Positions 1-15,820 of a stretch of 51,554 nt of DNA are shown here, piece by piece. This DNA comes from a virus. Its lineage: Duplodnaviria > Heunggongvirae > Uroviricota > Caudoviricetes. Position 1 is the stretch's first letter; the number at the start of each line of letters is the position of its first letter. The stretch is taken from IMG/VR virus record IMGVR_UViG_2531839664_000034; one strand, 5' to 3'. The notes under the pieces are model-generated. The model was not told the origin of the DNA. It saw nothing but the letters and a program-made list of their open reading frames with translations, and did not search any database. A program made the translations under genes and the position numbers.

Positions 1-31
1 ATGAAATCATTAACTGCAGTGCGTAAAAAAA

Positions 32-60
32 GTAAGCGTAAACTGACCGCCGTATGTAGC
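32..60. repeat. Extra IS66-family terminal-repeat-like sequence (GTAAGCGTAAACTGACC...), not paired with any element end in the window
   Basis: Starts with the GTAAGCG motif shared by the other IS66-type ends in this window (101, 352, and the reverse complements at 3060 and 5259). Confidence 0.3.
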
Positions 61-171
61 CATCAGACGAGAATTGGTAACTTAGACGCCCATCTGATAT
101 GTAAGCGTACAGCCTGAACCGTCTGGTCAGAATCTGACGAATTAGACAAAGTGGTGTCCACCAAATAAGTA

Positions 172-351
172 GTGGGAACCAAAGTGTCAGATATGCAGAA
201 AAATGTGACTCCCGGCAGGCGAAAAGGCTGCCCTAATTATCCTCCCGAATTTAAACAGCAGCTCGTTGCTGCCTCCTGTGAACCCGGGATATCCATCTCA
301 AAACTTGCTCTTGAAAATGGCATTAACGCCAATCTGTTGTTCAAATGGCGA
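172..351 (+). pseudogene. IS66 TnpA (orfA) of element B, N-terminal fragment, interrupted at 351/352
   Basis: ORF 172..420 is TnpA-like (PEFKQQLVAAS...GINANLLFKWR) up to position 351; the frame is continued exactly after the inserted element at 3061. Confidence 0.7.
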
Positions 352-433
352 GTAAGCGCCCCATCTGCGACGTCTTGTGAAAATTGTCCTGTCTGGCAAC
401 AATCGCGCCCATCTATATAGATGGACACGAACG

Positions 434-1108
434 ATGAATTCCCAGACAAAAAAAGATATTCCCTGCTTCCGTTCTTATTTGCCTGATGCTCTGCGTTTAA
501 GATTTGAAGATAAACTGACCATCCGGGCCATCGCTCAGCGTCTAGGTCTCAGTCATTCCACAATACATACGCTTTTTCAGCGATTTATTGCATCCGGTAT
601 CGCATGGCCATTGCCCGATTCAGTTTCATTAGCTCAGCTTGATGCCATCCTTTATGCCAACAGAAAGAAGGAATTAACAGAGCCTCAAATCAGCGAAGGC
701 ACATGGCGAAAAGAACGGCGAGCCAGCTACAGCCGTGAATTTAAGGTCCGTCTGGCTAAGCAGGCATTACAGCCCGGTGCTGTTGTTGCCCGGATCGCCA
801 GAGAGCACGGTATCAATGATAACCTGCTGTTTAAATGGAAAAGCCAGTACGAGGACGGCTTACTGAGCGATGATGACATACAGGAATGCATGCCTGTCCC
901 GGTGGCTCTGACTGATACGCCAGAGCCGACCAGACCAGTTACAAATCCCTTCTGGCGTAACAAGCCTGATGAGTGCCCTGAGAGTGATCCCGGAAACGTC
1001 CCACGGTGCGAGCTGCATCTTAAATCAGGTGTGGTAAAACTGTTTGACCCTCTCACTCCGGAAATGTTACGGGCGCTAATCCGCGAAATGAAAGGAGGTA
1101 CCCGATGA
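434..1108 (+). CDS. IS66-family accessory protein TnpA (orfA), long form with N-terminal HTH-like region
   Basis: Contains YSREFKVRLAKQALQPGAVVARIAREHGINDNLLFKWKSQY typical of IS66 orfA; ORF track starts at 377 but that ATG lies only 25 bp inside the IR, so 434 (MNSQTKK) preferred; start uncertain. Confidence 0.6.
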   Translation: MNSQTKKDIPCFRSYLPDALRLRFEDKLTIRAIAQRLGLSHSTIHTLFQRFIASGIAWPLPDSVSLAQLDAILYANRKKELTEPQISEGTWRKERRASYSREFKVRLAKQALQPGAVVARIAREHGINDNLLFKWKSQYEDGLLSDDDIQECMPVPVALTDTPEPTRPVTNPFWRNKPDECPESDPGNVPRCELHLKSGVVKLFDPLTPEMLRALIREMKGGTR

Positions 1109-1452
1109 TAACGCTGCCAACCGGTACCAGAATCTGGATCATCGCTGGCATCACAGATATGCGTTGTGGCTTCAACGGCCTGGCTTCGAAGGTGCAGAAC
1201 ACGCTGAAAGATGACCCGTTCTCCGGGCATATCTTCGTCTTCCGGGGCCGCAGTGGCAAAATGGTGAAAATACTGTGGGCCGATCGTGACGGGTTATGCC
1301 TGTTCGCCAAACGCCTGGAACGGGGCCGCTTCGTCTGGCCGGTAACCCGGGAAGGGAAAGTGCACCTGACGCCAGCTCAGTTATCCATGCTACTGGAGGG
1401 GATCGCGTGGCAACATCCCAAACGGACAGAACGGCCTGGCATCCGGATATAA
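1105..1452 (+). CDS. tnpB: IS66-family TnpB (orfB)
   Basis: 115 aa, MITLPTGTRIWIIAGITDMRCGFNGLA...; overlaps orfA stop (ATGA); canonical IS66 orfB size and sequence. Confidence 0.85.
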   Translation: MITLPTGTRIWIIAGITDMRCGFNGLASKVQNTLKDDPFSGHIFVFRGRSGKMVKILWADRDGLCLFAKRLERGRFVWPVTREGKVHLTPAQLSMLLEGIAWQHPKRTERPGIRI

Positions 1453-1471
1453 CCCGTGATAAAACAGGGGA

Positions 1472-3028
1472 ATGAACAACACACTCCCCGACGACATCGA
1501 GCAACTGAAGGCCCTGCTGATCGCACAGCAGGCTGTTATCGTCCGTCTGTCTGGTGAAATAACCGGCTATGCCCGCGAGATCAGCTCACTCAGAGCGCTG
1601 GTCGCTAAACTGCAGAGAATGTTGTTCGGTCGCAGCAGCGAGAAAAGCCGCGAGAAGACAGAAAAGAAGATCGCACGGGCAGAAACGCGTATAACCGAGC
1701 TCCAGAACAGGCTTGGTGAGGCGCAGTTGCAACTCACCTCAATGGCCGGAGAGACAGCGCCGAAAACATCAGACTCTCCCGTCCGCAAAGCACTTCCGGC
1801 AACACTTCCCCGTGACAGGCAGGTTATCTCCCCGGCAGAAACCGAATGCCCCGTCTGCAGCGGCAAACTGAAACCGCTGGGAGAAAGCATCTCTGAACAA
1901 CTGGATATCATCAACACCGCGTTCAGGGTAATCGAAACGGTTCGCCCAAAACTGGCCTGCAGCCGGTGCGACTGTATAGTTCAGGCTCCGCAGCCACCAA
2001 AACCCATCGAGCGCAGTTACGCCAGTCCGGCTCTGCTGGCCCGCATAATCATGGCTAAGTTCGCCGAGCATCTGCCGCTGTACCGTCAGTCGGAAATCTA
2101 TGCCCGCCAGGGCGTGGAGCTGCACCGCAATACGATGGGGCGCTGGGTTGACATCATGGGAGAGCAGCTTCGCCCGCTGTATGATGAACTGAAGCACTAT
2201 GTGCTGATGGCGGGTAAAGTGCATGCCGATGACACGCCGGTAAATGTACTGGAGCCGGGTCAGGGTAAAACCCGTACCGGACGGCTGTGGGTCTATGTTC
2301 GTGACGATCGCAACGCCGGTTCGACCATGCCGGCAGCGGTGTGGTTCTCATACTCTCCCGACCGCAAAGGCATCCACCCACAGCAACATCTGGCGGACTA
2401 CAGAGGTATCCTGCAGGCCGATGCATATGCGGGTTACAATGCTCTTTACGAAAGCGGTCAGGTAACCGAAGCGGCTTGTATGGCACATGCCCGACGCAAG
2501 ATCCACGATGTACATGTCCGCCATCCAACGACAGTAACGGGAGAAGCGCTCCGTCGTATCGGGGAACTGTACGCTATCGAGGCTGAGATCCGCGGCAGTC
2601 CGGCAGAAGAGCGACTGGCGGTCAGAAAAGCCAGAACGGTACCGCTAATGCAGTCGTTGTATGAGTGGCTCCAGGGGCAGATGAGCACGCTGTCGCGCCA
2701 CTCGGATACAGCGAAAGCGTTCACCTATCTGCTGAAGCAATGGGACGCTCTGAACGAATACTGCCGCAATGGCTGGGTGGAGATCGACAATAACCTGTGT
2801 GAAAACGCCCTCCGGGTAGTTGCACTGGGGCGGCGTAACTACATGTTCTTCGGCTCTGATGGTGGAGGCGAGAGTGCGGCAGTGATGTACAGCCTGATCG
2901 GTAGCTGCAAACTTAACGGAATCGAGCCGGAAACGTGGCTACGCCACGTGATCAGTGTAATCAACACCTGGCCTGCCAACCGCGTGAAAGAGTTGTTGCC
3001 CTGGAATGTCACTCAATCTGTAAACTAA
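1472..3028 (+). CDS. tnpC: IS66-family transposase TnpC
   Basis: 518 aa with N-terminal coiled coil/leucine zipper, CxxC...CxxC zinc-finger (CPVCSGKL...CSRCDC) and DDE-region motifs ([14 protein letters not shown]) typical of IS66 TnpC. Confidence 0.85.
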
Positions 3029-3060
3029 TTTTTACCCCACGTCCTTCACGGTGCGCTTAC

Positions 3061-3290
3061 AATGGCGACAACAATGGCGCGAGGGAAAGCTGCTATTACC
3101 TTCTTCAGAGAGCCCCCAGCTACTTCCTGTGACTCTCGATGCAGCTGCCGAACAGCCAGAATCGCTCGCAGAGGACCCGGAAACCCTCAGTATCAGCTGT
3201 GAGGTAACGTTCCGGCACGGGACGCTCCGCTTCAATGGCAATGTCAGCGAAAAGCTCCTGACTCTGCTGATACAGGAACTGAAGCGATGA
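3061..3290 (+). pseudogene. IS66 TnpA (orfA) of element B, C-terminal fragment
   Basis: Reading 349-351 (cga) directly into 3069 onward gives ...LFKWR-QQWREGKLLLPSSE...LLIQELKR in one frame, matching ORF 3051..3290. Confidence 0.7.
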
Positions 3291-3634
3291 TCCCGTTACC
3301 TTCCGGGACCAAAATTTGGCTGGTTGCCGGTATCACCGATATGAGAAATGGCTTCAACGGCCTGGCTGCGAAAGTACAGACGGCGCTGAAAGACGATCCC
3401 ATGTCCGGCCATGTTTTCATTTTCCGGGGCCGCAGCGGCAGTCAGGTTAAACTGCTGTGGTCCACCGGTGACGGACTGTGCCTCCTGACCAAACGGCTGG
3501 AGCGTGGGCGCTTCGCCTGGCCGTCAGCCCGTGATGGCAAAGTATTCCTTACACAGGCGCAGCTGGCGATGCTGCTGGAAGGTATCGACTGGCGACAGCC
3601 TAAGCGGCTGCTGACCTCCCTGACCATGCTGTAA
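3287..3634 (+). CDS. tnpB: IS66-family TnpB (orfB), element B
   Basis: 115 aa [27 protein letters not shown]..., paralogous to 1105..1452. Confidence 0.85.
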
Positions 3635-3683
3635 ATCTCTTTATCCTGGTTGTCACAGAATAAGCCCGGTAAAATACGGGCTT

Positions 3684-5222
3684 ATGAACGACATCTCTTC
3701 TGACGACATCTTCCTGCTGAAACAGCGCCTGGCCGAACAGGAAGCGCTGATCCACGCCCTGCAGGAAAAGCTGAACAACCGGGAGCGCGAAATAGACCAT
3801 CTGCAGGCGCAGCTGGATAAACTCCGCCGGATGAACTTCGGCAGTCGTTCCGAAAAAGTCTCCCGCCGTATCGCACAAATGGAAGCCGATCTGAACCGGC
3901 TTCAGAAAGAGAGCGATACGCTGACTGGTAGGGTGTATGACCCGGCAGTACAGCGTCCGTTGCGTCAGACCCGCCCCCGTAAGCCGTTCCCTGAATCACT
4001 ACCCCGTGACGAAAAGCGACTGTTGCCTGCGGCGCCGTGCTGCCCGAACTGCGGCGGTTCACTGAGCTATCTGGGCGAGGATACCGCCGAACAGCTGGAG
4101 TTGATGCGTAGCGCCTTCCGGGTTATCCGGACGGTACGGGAAAAACATGCCTGTACTCAGTGCGATGCCATCGTGCAGGCACCTGCACCTTCGCGGCCCA
4201 TCGAGCGGGGTATCGCCGGACCGGGGCTGCTGGCCCGCGTGCTGACCTCGAAGTATGCAGAGCACACCCCGCTGTATCGCCAGTCAGAAATATACGGCCG
4301 GCAAGGTGTGGAGCTGAGCCGTTCACTGCTGTCGGGCTGGGTGGATGCATGCTGCCGGCTGCTGTCTCCGCTGGAAGAGGCGCTTCATGGCTATGTCATG
4401 ACTGACGGCAAACTCCATGCCGATGATACCCCGGTCCAGGTACTGCTGCCGGGTAATAAGAAGACGAAGACCGGGCGGTTGTGGGCGTATGTTCGTGATG
4501 ACCGCAATGCCGGGTCAGCGTTGGCACCTGCAGTGAGGTTCGCTTACAGCCCGGACAGAAAAGGCATCCATCCGCAGACTCATCTTGCCTGCTTCAGCGG
4601 TGTGCTGCAAGCGGATGCGTACGCCGGGTTCAACGAGCTGTATCGCAATGGTGGGATAACGGAAGCTGCCTGCTGGGCTCATGCCCGCCGAAAGATCCAC
4701 GATGTGCACGTCCGCATCCCGTCAGCACTGACGGAAGAAGCCCTGGAGCAGATCGGTCAGTTGTACGCCATAGAGGCGGATATAAGGGGAATGCCGGCAG
4801 AGCAGCGGCTTGCTGAACGTCAGCGAAAAACGAAACCGCTGTTGAAATCCCTGGAAAGCTGGTTGCGTGAAAAGATGAAGACCCTGTCGCGACACTCAGA
4901 GTTGGCGAAGGCGTTCGCGTACGCACTTAACCAGTGGCCGGCACTGACGTACTATGCGAACGATGGCTGGGTGGAAATCGACAACAACATCGCTGAAAAT
5001 GCCCTGCGGGCGGTCAGTCTGGGTCGTAAAAACTTCCTGTTCTTCGGCTCTGACCATGGTGGTGAGCGGGGAGCGCTAGTGTACAGCCTGATCGGGACGT
5101 GCAAACTGAATGACGTGGATCCAGAAAGCTACCTTCGCCATGTGCCTGGCGTCATAGCAGACTGGCCGGTCAACCGGGTCAGCGAACTGCTTCCGTGGCG
5201 CATAGCACTGCCAGCTGAATAA
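3684..5222 (+). CDS. tnpC: IS66-family transposase TnpC, element B
   Basis: 512 aa; same architecture as 1472..3028 (CCPNCGG...CTQCD zinc finger, [14 protein letters not shown]). Confidence 0.85.
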
Positions 5223-5261
5223 CACATCCCCGTCAATACGGTTCTTGCTGCACGCTTACCA

Positions 5262-5477
5262 ACAAACCGGCCCACACCAGAAGCGATTATGGCAAACTAC
5301 CAACTGAATGAACAATTACTGGAGGGATGCAGGCCCTGGATTGTTATTTTTGATGACGTTCTTACTGCCGGTAGCCATTTTAAAGCGATGAAAAGCCTGA
5401 TACTACAACATATTCCTGAAGCCTGTATACTGGGACTCTTTGTTGCCCGAACAACCCGGGGAGCTCAAATTATTTAA
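5262..5477 (+). pseudogene. C-terminal fragment of a phosphoribosyltransferase (PRTase)-fold protein, 5-prime end removed by IS66 element B
   Basis: Open frame runs from the IS66 boundary (5259) without a plausible N-terminus; PRTase signature hydrophobic-DD-V-x-T-x-G (WIVIFDDVLTAGSHF) near the C-terminus. Confidence 0.4.
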
Positions 5478-8573: not shown

Positions 8574-9585
8574 TTTATAGTCCTTACTTTATAAAACTCA
8601 CAGGAAGAGAGAATTACGTAAATACTGAGAGTAGAGAAACGCCGTACCACGGCATTAATAAACGAAGTAAACCAGCAGCACAGACAACCTGATAAAACTG
8701 TTTTGTATTACCGCATTACTGTAATGAGGTAATACTTCAGAATACAGTGAGACTCTCTTAAACTGAGAACCAGTACGAATTACAATGGAAAAACACACCT
8801 CATAGAATTGAGTTTCAGGAAGCACCACTAAATTCTTTACAGGAAGTAATCTGACATTCACAAAAGTCAGCTATAGAATAGCCACAGACAACATCGCTAT
8901 TAATATTGTCGTACCATTAAGTGAAAACAGCGACTCTGCAGAGAGCAGCCTACAGATATTTAATCAGTAGCATAAAAGAATAATGACATACAGACCATAC
9001 GCTACACACCATAAAAAGATTGTTTCATACAAAAAAGATAATATTTACCCATGCTTATAAACTGTAACGGAGCTATAACGTACGAACTAAAGACAATATA
9101 CTCTAATAGTGTGCTGGTACGTAACCAGTGTTAAATGCAAACCAGACATACATTCAGCGGATTAACTTTCTCAATATTACGCTATGAGTGTAGTAACATA
9201 ATTTACACATAACTAAACTCCATACACCACCACACTGTAGTATATGGGGATAGACGCATTACGCACATACAGAATACTCAGCATAAAGAGGAGTGACATT
9301 ACGATAAAAAGAGACAACATAACAGATAACATAACTTCCACTAATAATACTAATTAACCTTAATTATTTATTGAATACGAAAACAATGAAGTGCCCTCCT
9401 TATCTAAGGCCAAAGCCAGCAATATCCTGTACAACACTCTATCCAATAGTAAATAGTAGTTACACCAGTTATATTTACTGACTGACCTGTACCAGAGTTC
9501 TGTAATACAACACTGACATGGTCATGGCATTAATCTCCTCCGCAAGTAACGGAGGAGACTATATGTTACTCAACGATTAAGTCGT

Positions 9586-11019
9586 TCAGAGGTCAAAGTT
9601 AGGTGCGACACACAACGTTTTTCCCTCAATAACCGGTACAACTCTGTTTTGTTCATACAGTAAATCCAGTAACCAGTTGATTTTATCCTTTTTCCGGAAA
9701 CGGTTCGGACCACGCTGTAAAATGTCATTTTTTTTCATACAGAGGATCCCCTTCTCAATGCAATAGCTTTTTATCCAGTTGAAAAGTTCAAGCTCCTCTG
9801 GAATGAGTCGCACAGGTACGGTCAGAGCAGTGTTGTCAAAAGTTAACGGATTAGACAACCGCATATACTCATTACCGTACCATATTGCTAATTCTCTCGC
9901 CATTTCTGCAGTGTAAGGGGAAATCTCCCCCTCTTCACCGCTCGAATGGTAAATAAGTCCTGCCAGTCTTGCCATATACTCTGCATTTTTGGCAGCATAT
10001 TCCCGACAATGTCTTAAAGGCCCCAATCCCCCCAGTTTCGATTCCACATCGTTGTAATAATCCGTCCAGATTCTGGCAGCCTGAGGAGAAAAGTGAAGGC
10101 AACGTCGTTCACCACTCATCGCCAGACTTTCATCAATAAGTTCATTGATCCTCTTATCAAATAACTCCTGATACTGTGATGAATAATTATCTCCGGTTAT
10201 TATCCTTGTCCCCTGCATTGATGTTGGTTGACACATCAAAAACCTTGCATGATGTCCTGACGTTTTCACAAGTTCTTTTTTTCGCGTACAAAAACCTTTG
10301 TGGTAAACATCAGGCTGAATCATCGCCGACATCGTCAGTCTTGGCTCCTTCAAATTAATTCCGGGAGATGATTTCCTGTCGATGAAAAGAGAACCTCCAT
10401 CCCACAAAGTGTTAATAATTCCCAGTTTACTCATGGCCCGGCTGTCAAAAATTACTCCCCCTTCACTGGATACAAGAGCAAAAGAACGATTGCTATCGGA
10501 GTAATATTTTAACATTCCCTCTATCGTTGTATCATTAAAAATTGTTCGACGTATCTGCGGCGGAACAGGAGAGTTATTCAGATGCGTTTCAAGCTCTGAT
10601 TCTGTTGCCTTGTAATCTTTACCGGCACGAATCTCTTTATGAAATTTTGATTCCAGCGCTTTTTGTTTTTGCTCCCATATTTCCTTTTCTGTACTGTAAT
10701 TCTCAACCAGTTTCGCGTATTCTTCCGCCAGGGCTTCATCCCTGAGATAAAATGCTTTCATAAACACTTTATCCACGGTCGTTTTCCTTTCACCGGAATC
10801 AGCCAGAATCAGAGAGTAAATATTAACGGGCCCACGTAAATTTCCAGGTCTGCACACGTCAATCTGATTCTGACAGGCAATTGACATCGCTGTTAATGCG
10901 GATGTCGCCACCATAGCCAAAGGAGCCTGTGTATTTTGTTGAGTTTCAATTATTGCATTTCTCACCAGCGGTGGTAGTGCATATATCGGATAAGGATTTT
11001 CTGGTGCTAGTAAGCACAT
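9586..11019 (-). CDS. YfjI-like (DUF3987-type) island protein
   Basis: 477 aa; size, position next to AlpA-like gene and remembered similarity to CP4-57 YfjI; function unknown. Confidence 0.5.
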   Translation of the reverse strand: MCLLAPENPYPIYALPPLVRNAIIETQQNTQAPLAMVATSALTAMSIACQNQIDVCRPGNLRGPVNIYSLILADSGERKTTVDKVFMKAFYLRDEALAEEYAKLVENYSTEKEIWEQKQKALESKFHKEIRAGKDYKATESELETHLNNSPVPPQIRRTIFNDTTIEGMLKYYSDSNRSFALVSSEGGVIFDSRAMSKLGIINTLWDGGSLFIDRKSSPGINLKEPRLTMSAMIQPDVYHKGFCTRKKELVKTSGHHARFLMCQPTSMQGTRIITGDNYSSQYQELFDKRINELIDESLAMSGERRCLHFSPQAARIWTDYYNDVESKLGGLGPLRHCREYAAKNAEYMARLAGLIYHSSGEEGEISPYTAEMARELAIWYGNEYMRLSNPLTFDNTALTVPVRLIPEELELFNWIKSYCIEKGILCMKKNDILQRGPNRFRKKDKINWLLDLLYEQNRVVPVIEGKTLCVAPNFDL

Positions 11020-14503: not shown

Positions 14504-15820
14504 TCACCTTCTGCCAAACAGATTGACAACATTATTGCCTGTTTGCTGTTGATAGTTATTAACCCGATCCTCCCAGATCTCAAGTGCTCTGCGTTTTTCT
14601 GGCAAATAATCGTATCGATCATAATGTTTTGAACTGACATCGTTCAACGCATGATTTTGAATACGATCGCGGATTTCCTTACTGATTCCAGCTTCTCCCA
14701 TTAACGTTTTACAGGTCCGACGTAAGTCACGTGCTGTAAAAATTTTAAAGTCAGGATTACAAGCCCGGAAATACATGATAGCGCGAGCCAGACTGTCCGT
14801 ACGAACCGGACGCTTACCATTAGTCGAAAGCGGGAAAATGTAAGGGCTCGATTTTTCTTTTGTTAACTCCTGCACACAGGCTAATTCCTGTAATGCTGAT
14901 TCAGTCAACGGTATCAAATGCTCTCGTTTATTTTTAGAGACATCCGCAGTCACCAGCAGCGTTTTTTGCTGAAAATCAACATCACACCACTGACTGGCGA
15001 TCATTTCAAAGGGACGTTGCCCTCCGGTATAGATACAGAATCGAATCAAATGTTGCATCAATAATCCAACGTTGGTTGCTTCAGCAAAATGTTCCATTAG
15101 AAAACGCAACTCTTCGAGTGTCAGCCAGGTGTCACCGACTTTTTCTGCAGATGACTGTTTCGGTATCACTGATACAGGATTGGCCTCCAGCCCAAAACTA
15201 ATCCCTACACTTGTGTTCATCGGATCGTTATCAGCTTTCAGACCATAGTTAAATGCAGCCATCAGGTAAGAACGGATCCGGTTAGAGTGAACCACAGCAC
15301 CGCGCTGAATGATCCCGGCCAAGATATGTTTAATCTGTCCGGAAGTCACATCTTTAGCTTTAGTCTCACGGGGGATCACTGTATAGCATTCATTTTCAAG
15401 GCGTTTCAGAACATCCTGCCATGTTCTCTTATTATCAATTTTCATTTTGTTAACATAACCATGAATCAATGCTTCAAATGAACCCTGTGATTGATGGAGT
15501 TGTCTCCGCTGCTGTTCTGCAAGCTGTTGTCGCTCCAGTTCTGTCTGGGGATCCTTTCCTTCAATGAGCCAGGCACCATACTTTTTTGCCAGTTCGTTCG
15601 CTGTGGCCAGTTTCATCTCAGGCCATATACCCAATTGAATGAATCTTTCTTTTGTCCCTTTTTCCACGTAATAGCGGAAATAGAAAATTTTGCTGCCAGA
15701 AGACTGAACTTTGACGCCAAGTCGTCCAGTGCCACGTTGAGAGCTATTGCTCCAGACATAGAACGATGTCTTTTTTGCTTTTAATGCTCGAATAGCTGTT
15801 TCAGTTAGATTGACGGCCAT
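14504..15820 (-). CDS. int: P4-type tyrosine integrase
   Basis: 438 aa; N-terminal arm-binding-like region, C-terminal catalytic region with conserved R...HxxR...Y spacing (e.g. HDLRRTCKTLM); lies about 200 bp from a tRNA 3-prime fragment. Confidence 0.85.
   Translation of the reverse strand: MAVNLTETAIRALKAKKTSFYVWSNSSQRGTGRLGVKVQSSGSKIFYFRYYVEKGTKERFIQLGIWPEMKLATANELAKKYGAWLIEGKDPQTELERQQLAEQQRRQLHQSQGSFEALIHGYVNKMKIDNKRTWQDVLKRLENECYTVIPRETKAKDVTSGQIKHILAGIIQRGAVVHSNRIRSYLMAAFNYGLKADNDPMNTSVGISFGLEANPVSVIPKQSSAEKVGDTWLTLEELRFLMEHFAEATNVGLLMQHLIRFCIYTGGQRPFEMIASQWCDVDFQQKTLLVTADVSKNKREHLIPLTESALQELACVQELTKEKSSPYIFPLSTNGKRPVRTDSLARAIMYFRACNPDFKIFTARDLRRTCKTLMGEAGISKEIRDRIQNHALNDVSSKHYDRYDYLPEKRRALEIWEDRVNNYQQQTGNNVVNLFGRR

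Follow-up and report, generated by a model that had tools for sequence, protein, structure and literature searches.

Insertion sequences (ISs) can delete the DNA next to them while being retained themselves, an established behaviour that also occurs without an IS-excision enhancer (IEE), was described for several ISs from the 1970s onward and has been demonstrated experimentally for IS3 (PMC8860574). The locus described here shares with this adjacent or "creeping" deletion an intact IS with a flush end, an unchanged flank on the other side, the loss of the target-site duplication (TSD) and a nested series of deletions carried by related strains, but differs from it in that the IS belongs to the IS66 family and the deleted DNA is itself an IS66-family element. 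IEE has been reported to give rise to deletions flanking an IS as well as to excision (PMC9397093; bioRxiv 10.1101/2023.06.07.543989), and an intact iee gene is adjacent to the locus; however, the documented IEE substrates are members of the IS3, IS1 and IS30 families and the joints contain microhomology, whereas here an IS66-family element is retained and microhomology is lacking. Nested ISs and IS remnants in islands and plasmids of Escherichia coli and Shigella are comparable in that the present locus lies in a SpLE1-like island and contains one TSD-flanked nested insertion and IS fragments. Contrary to simple nesting, the three stubs found here are all left ends in one orientation, each of them butts against the terminus of the element that follows, and they have no matching right-hand remainders. 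Full-length ISEc23 provides a further comparison, as positions 32-100 of the analysed DNA are identical to its positions 1-69, with both the GTAAGCG terminus and the left inverted repeat, but lack genes, a right end and a TSD. Members of the IS66 family are characterised by termini that start 5'-GTAAGCG, by imperfect terminal inverted repeats of about 20-30 bp and by a tnpA-tnpB-tnpC set with a DDE-type TnpC, and 8-bp duplications are expected for their insertions. Nothing specific on the transposition mechanism, adjacent deletion or end targeting of this family was found in the literature searched, and because its mechanism is not established there, the strand-transfer step proposed below is drawn by analogy.

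In the parts compared, the analysed stretch of 51,554 nucleotides (the window) is 100% identical to chromosomal DNA of E. coli O121 RM8352 (L001; L numbers denote the fetched loci). The locus lies in a SpLE1-like island (ure, espI, iha, iee), downstream of espI, which encodes a protease autotransporter; the features at the left side of the window are listed in Table 1. A tyrosine recombinase/integrase gene is located at about 14504-15820 on the minus strand and is followed by core genes (among others nfeF, nfeR, aer, ygjG, the ebg operon and uxaCA). Because these core genes follow the integrase gene, the island boundary is placed near 16 kb, with most of the window representing E. coli backbone.

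Table 1. Features at the left side of the window, with positions counted from its first base.
Feature	Position	Strand	Basis or remark
Tail of a shortened ISEc22 left end (ISEc22 82-112)	1..31	+	BLAST to full ISEc22 (L007): 82-113, 1 mismatch
Orphaned left end of ISEc23 (1-69), with terminal inverted repeat and subterminal sequence	32..100	+	69/69 to full-length ISEc23
ISEc8-like element, left part (1-251); left inverted repeat 101-122	101..351	+	100% to ISEc8 of O103:H2 12009
TSD AATGGCGA, 8 bp, left copy	344..351		Read directly
Nested complete 2,709-bp IS66-family element	352..3060	+	34-nt inverted repeats, Pfam
tnpA of the nested element	434..1108	+	
tnpB of the nested element	1105..1452	+	
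tnpC of the nested element	1472..3028	+	
TSD AATGGCGA, 8 bp, right copy	3061..3068		TSD check
ISEc8-like element, right part (244-2442); right inverted repeat 5238-5259	3061..5259	+	BLAST, Pfam
tnpB of the ISEc8-like right part	3287..3634	+	
tnpC of the ISEc8-like right part	3684..5222	+	
CAACAAAC, first 8 bp of the right flank	5260..5267		Inside the intact 208-aa gene in IS-free strains; no left match
62-aa ORF, C-terminal remnant of the interrupted 208-aa gene	5289..5477	+	By-eye alignment to L016 4592-5218
iee, IS-excision enhancer, 786 aa	5495..7855	-	Length and D142, D144, H178, D216, K451, R735

The window contains no more than two exact copies of GTAAGCGTA, on the plus strand at 32-40 and 101-109, with starts 69 bp apart, matching the two IS66-type left ends that a first-pass annotation had proposed from the letters alone. 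The start of the window reads atgaaatcattaactgcagtgcgtaaaaaaa / GTAAGCGTAAACTGACC...CTGATAT / GTAAGCGTACAGCC..., with slashes between the pieces. The left end at 101 pairs with the inverted right end at 5238-5259 at 19 of 22 positions (a 22-nt, 86% inverted repeat) vs 14 of 22 for the end at 32, which bears out the earlier view that only the second left end suits the right end at 5259. Motif counts by themselves are weak evidence for an end at 32: the GTAAGCG 7-mer is present ten times in the window where 4.2 copies are expected (a count reached by 1 of 100 shuffles), and the GTAAGCGTA 9-mer with up to one mismatch is present 11 times where 7.2 are expected. The end at 32 nevertheless goes beyond chance, because positions 32-100 are 100% identical to ISEc23 1-69.

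This identity holds for 69/69 positions against full-length ISEc23 copies, for which the name ISEc23 is the PGAP label "ISEc23 family transposase" of full-length relatives and serves as a proxy for the ISfinder type sequence. In strain CE0021a, for example, the complete element comprises 2,532 bp, starts with GTAAGCGTAAACTGACC, encodes tnpA, tnpB and tnpC and has an 8-bp duplication at its flanks; full ISEc23 copies with 8-bp TSDs are those of L006 (GAAAAATG) and L013 (CACAAATG). Of 5,426 complete E. coli genomes, 2,946 contain the ISEc23 left-end sequence. Between the end at 32 and the right end of ISEc23 itself, 19 of 22 positions pair (23 of 30 for 32-61), and the first seven bases of the end at 32 (32-38, GTAAGCG) are the start shared by five of five IS66-family ends examined. 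The window has kept 69 of 2,532 bp, and the lost remainder amounts to about 2.46 kb; BLAST identified no further ISEc23 sequence in the window, which also lacks a right end to partner the stub. The stub is devoid of coding capacity, as it stops ahead of the ISEc23 tnpA start. These matches identify positions 32-100 as the orphaned left end of a separate member of the IS66 family, a fragment and not a complete element. The earlier suggestion of a scar left by a mostly deleted further IS66-type copy holds in so far as a separate family end is present, but this end comes from a different member, ISEc23, and not from another copy of the same IS. When it was asked whether the sequence at 32 aligns inside the same element, it matched the terminus of the separate one instead.

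The reading of GTAAGCGTA at 32 as a chance motif in a small open reading frame at 1-117 or as a part of ISEc8 itself is extremely improbable and is refuted by the alignment to full-length ISEc23: the short motif is not significantly enriched and the ATG-initiated frame passes through it, but the match to the ISEc23 terminus is complete, ISEc8 starts at 101 in all copies, and the frame is a fusion over three IS fragments. Its 38 codons (MKSLTAVRKKSKRKL / MKSLTAVRKK...) read across the ISEc22, ISEc23 and ISEc8 pieces, match no Pfam family and are absent from the RefSeq annotation.

The stub belongs to a stack of left ends downstream of espI. In both O121 RM8352 and O103:H2 12009 the order is espI, ISEc8 1-47, ISEc22 1-112, ISEc23 1-69 and full ISEc8, and all four IS66-family left ends share one orientation. 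The ISEc22 stub starts 81 bp to the left of the window (the whole 112-bp stub lies at L001 5920-6031), and position 1 of the window is the ATG of ISEc22 tnpA, which starts at offset 82 in L007. The fourth left end, the 47-bp ISEc8 stub, is located just upstream of the window in the matching genomes. [quoted passage not shown] The stub at 32-100 and the whole left-end stack are inert and have no function of their own. Across three lineages (L002, L013 and L001), IS66-family left ends downstream of the espI stop codon fall within about 135 bp in the same orientation: an ISEc8 stub at +155, a complete ISEc23 with the TSD CACAAATG at +208 and an ISEc23 variant at +289.

To the right of the stack, the ISEc8-like element is interrupted by a complete IS66-family element in the same orientation, which encodes proteins with HTH_Tnp_1, TnpB_IS66 and DDE_Tnp_IS66 domains (Pfam); TnpB_IS66 proteins and DDE_Tnp_IS66/zf-IS66/LZ_Tnp_IS66 proteins are encoded by both elements. 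Copies 100% identical to the nested element are found on virulence plasmids of O121 strains, including plasmid NZ_CP028111 of the same strain. The nested element is missing at this site in O103:H2 12009 (L008), which marks it as a recent insertion. While the nested element is flanked by a perfect TSD, there is none around the outer ISEc8-like element, where TCTGATAT on the left is opposed to CAACAAAC on the right. As a control, simple insertions of IS66-family elements were examined, and seven of seven are flanked by a perfect 8-bp TSD.

Related strains share the arrangement espI, 47 bp of ISEc8, 112 bp of ISEc22, ISEc23 stub, ISEc8, 62-aa ORF and iee, with three different lengths of the ISEc23 stub. 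The stub comprises 1,340/1,341 bp in CFSAN004176 (L011), 326 bp in five genomes including SJ7 (L009) as well as in two derivatives disrupted by IS3-family elements (L010, L012), and 69 bp in O103:H2 12009 and its relatives (L008) and in O121 (L001). In each case ISEc23 breaks off (at 69, 326 or 1,340/1) directly before base 1 of an ISEc8 that is complete at 2,442 bp. The junctions at 69 and 326 contain 0 bp of microhomology, and those at 1,340 and at ISEc22 112 contain 1 bp (G). The ISEc8 copies of L008 and L009 are 100% identical. A private SNP (TTAGGC) is present in the upstream ISEc8 stub of the 326-bp lineage, and because of it the 326-bp state is not the direct ancestor of the 69-bp state. 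The 69- and 326-bp states are most readily taken as separate deletions, each starting from a longer ancestor, so that the series comprises at least two independent events and not one line. This natural deletion series of 1,341/326/69 bp could be a lineage marker for SpLE1-like islands.

Opposite the variable left side, the right junction GCACGCTTAC/CAACAAACCGGCCC is identical in L001, L008, L009 and L011, including 47 bp of right flank, and in SCPM-O-B-9427 the identical junction (L015 7078/7079) is occupied by ISEc22 and not by ISEc8. Up to about position 2,396, the ISEc8 of the window shows the ISEc8 type at essentially all informative sites (494), with the exception of five scattered ISEc22-type sites, whereas the last four informative sites (element positions 2,425-2,434) are of the ISEc22 type; in this informative-site analysis, the switch falls inside a 27-bp block that is identical in ISEc8 and ISEc22. 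The right tip at 5236-5259 is identical to that of ISEc22 and shows 4 differences from the common tip, which most E. coli ISEc8 copies carry. The ISEc8 beside iee is chimeric in that it ends with an ISEc22 tip. Elsewhere, too, an ISEc8 right end has an ISEc22-type tip (plasmid hit H158), and because of this hit and a crossover block of only 27 bp, the tip could be a pre-existing variant. Together, the ISEc22-type tip and the presence of ISEc22 at the same junction suggest that an older nested structure was collapsed by recombination.

The empty site is preserved in SI-NP020 (L016), where the 208-aa gene is intact and located between a dprA-like gene and a primase-helicase gene. No Pfam or NCBIfam match was obtained for the 62-aa ORF that remains of this gene in the window; IVIFDDVLTAGSH within it resembles a phosphoribosyltransferase motif.

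With a probability of roughly 0.8, we consider positions 32-100 to be the scar of an IS-mediated adjacent deletion by ISEc8, preceded by the history outlined further below. At this locus the endpoint is flush with an intact IS, the opposite flank is unchanged and the TSD is lost. As the endpoint falls exactly at 101, where the left inverted repeat begins, the deletion was probably made by the ISEc8 transposition machinery, and the lack of microhomology at the 69 and 326 junctions is as expected for transposase strand transfer. Two routes would yield the same product. In a one-step route, the left end of ISEc8 would attack a nearby leftward target and the intervening DNA would be lost; in a two-step route, ISEc8 would make a local hop in the same orientation into ISEc23, followed by homologous recombination between the direct ISEc8 copies. 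The resulting stub is ordinary IS decay, a scar of an already known kind.

A quite unlikely alternative is an independent primary insertion of ISEc8 into a full ISEc23 at position 69, with the right remainder lost through a separate recombination or deletion. Insertions of this kind with proper TSDs do occur, as exemplified by ISEc8 in ISEc23 at 76 (CAGACGGA, L002), ISEc23 in ISEc8 at 105 (L006), ISEc23 in ISEc23 at 94 (L004) and the nested element of the window. However, this scenario requires three independent insertions plus deletions that converge on one right junction and on the ISEc22-type tip, and is far less parsimonious than a single inherited junction; a TSD is also missing. The complete identity of ISEc8 between L008 and L009 and the common right junction already go a long way towards refuting it. 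It is also very improbable that the stub acts as a functional outer left end and moves with ISEc8 as a composite unit. ISEc23 left-end sequence directly precedes the ISEc8 left end in L002, L005, L009 and L011, but the stub lengths vary with context (76, 204, 326 and 1,341 bp), which argues for different events and not for copies of one unit. Furthermore, the exact 69-bp junction was seen only at the espI-iee locus, the ISEc23 end pairs poorly, at 14/22 positions, with the end at 5259, and no 69-bp stub plus ISEc8 with an 8-bp TSD was found at unrelated sites.

The earlier history that we infer for the preferred reading, an adjacent deletion by ISEc8, would begin with the insertion of ISEc22 at CAACAAAC in the 208-aa gene beside iee. 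The left side of ISEc22 would have become joined to the ISEc8 stub downstream of espI, for which one further rearrangement is needed. ISEc23 would have inserted into ISEc22 at about 112 and ISEc8 then into ISEc23 at about 1,341, and recombination between the 3' regions of ISEc8 and ISEc22 would have removed the right-hand remainders and left the ISEc22-type tip, giving the structure of CFSAN004176. Left-flush deletions would have left 326 bp of ISEc23 in one lineage and 69 bp in the O103:H2/O121 lineage, and in O121 a further IS66-family element would then have entered ISEc8 (352-3060). The predicted ancestral junction, consisting of the left half of the 208-aa gene, CAACAAAC and the ISEc22 left end, was found in 0 of 5,426 genomes. 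It was also considered whether the inner ISEc8 had recombined once with what was left of the outermost ISEc8 and all right remainders had been removed in this way; this was rejected on account of the right flank, because CAACAAAC is neither espI-downstream DNA nor the TSD partner of ACTCATCC.

An ISEc23-like right part (1319-2532, about 93% identical) is located about 5.5 kb leftward, upstream of espI (L008 397-1610), and there is an overlap of about 22 bp between its breakpoint and the end of the 1,341-bp ISEc23 stub downstream of espI in CFSAN004176 (L011 3811-5151). The ISEc23-like parts around espI are in permuted order, with the right part first, as after integration of a circle or a tandem duplication, although this is perhaps a coincidence.

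The gene to the right of the locus lies 236 bp from the right end of ISEc8 and was identified as iee by its length and all six published catalytic residues (PMC9943667). In the IS-free strain SI-NP020 (L016 3702-5218), iee is preceded by the dprA-like gene and the intact 208-aa gene. SCPM-O-B-9427 (L015), the window lineage and, apparently, O157 (L017) retain a short remnant of the latter, and the left-side DNA examined in them contains no dprA-like gene. IS66-family activity has cost iee its neighbouring genes in these strains, and the iee gene studied in STEC may be the orphan of a multi-gene system. A literature search for a "TOTE" system returned nothing.

As iee adjoins this ISEc8 in every strain of the series, IEE, encoded 236 bp to its right, might have acted with the ISEc8 transposase to promote the flanking deletions. 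We regard this as having a slim chance of being correct. Both the identity of the gene and the deletions reported for IEE speak for it, but the documented substrates belong to the IS3, IS1 and IS30 families, with IS66 unmentioned in a review of IEE substrates, IEE uses microhomology-mediated end joining whereas the 69 and 326 junctions have 0 bp, and adjacent deletions with the IS retained happen without IEE (PMC8860574). Any involvement of IEE in the deletions is speculative; if true, the substrate range of IEE would extend to the IS66 family.

Nesting of IS66-family elements in each other is common among the fetched loci (L002, L004, L006 and the window), and the stub and insertion points are at 46, 47, 105, 237 and 251 in ISEc8, at 69, 76, 94 and 204 in ISEc23 and at 112 in ISEc22. 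The first 50-250 bp or so of IS66-family elements are possibly preferred, orientation-biased targets for members of the family, although the sample was drawn with left-end queries and its ascertainment bias invalidates inference of target preference from these insertions. It is unlikely, if worth considering, that IS66-family elements habitually remodel the DNA at their left ends and keep the right end in place, so that stacks of orphaned GTAAGCG stubs are left, perhaps promoted by iee. A left-end bias or a dependence on IEE, if true, would give a first clue to the mechanism of an IS family that has been little studied. Searches with ISEc8 46-mers located the left tip at 9,649 places, a right-internal segment at 9,490 and a left-internal segment at 4,919; the low left-internal count is an artefact of a common G-to-A SNP in O157-type copies that breaks the 28-base megablast seed. 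With about as many left-tip as right-internal places, the counts do not point to any large excess of left stubs of ISEc8 across the genomes.

Shortened IS ends and deletions flush with an IS are commonplace in pathogenicity islands, and the stub is of little general significance. Stacked end stubs of the IS66 family also occur elsewhere (L003 3002-3506, L004 3005-3335, L005 3005-3208 and L014 5006-5051) and comprise ISEc23 and ISEc8 left ends as well as a 60-bp ISEc23 right end. In O55:H7 (L014), near efa1/lifA, a 46-bp ISEc8 stub lies beside an ISEc23-like element and is cut at nearly the same point as the 47-bp stub downstream of espI.
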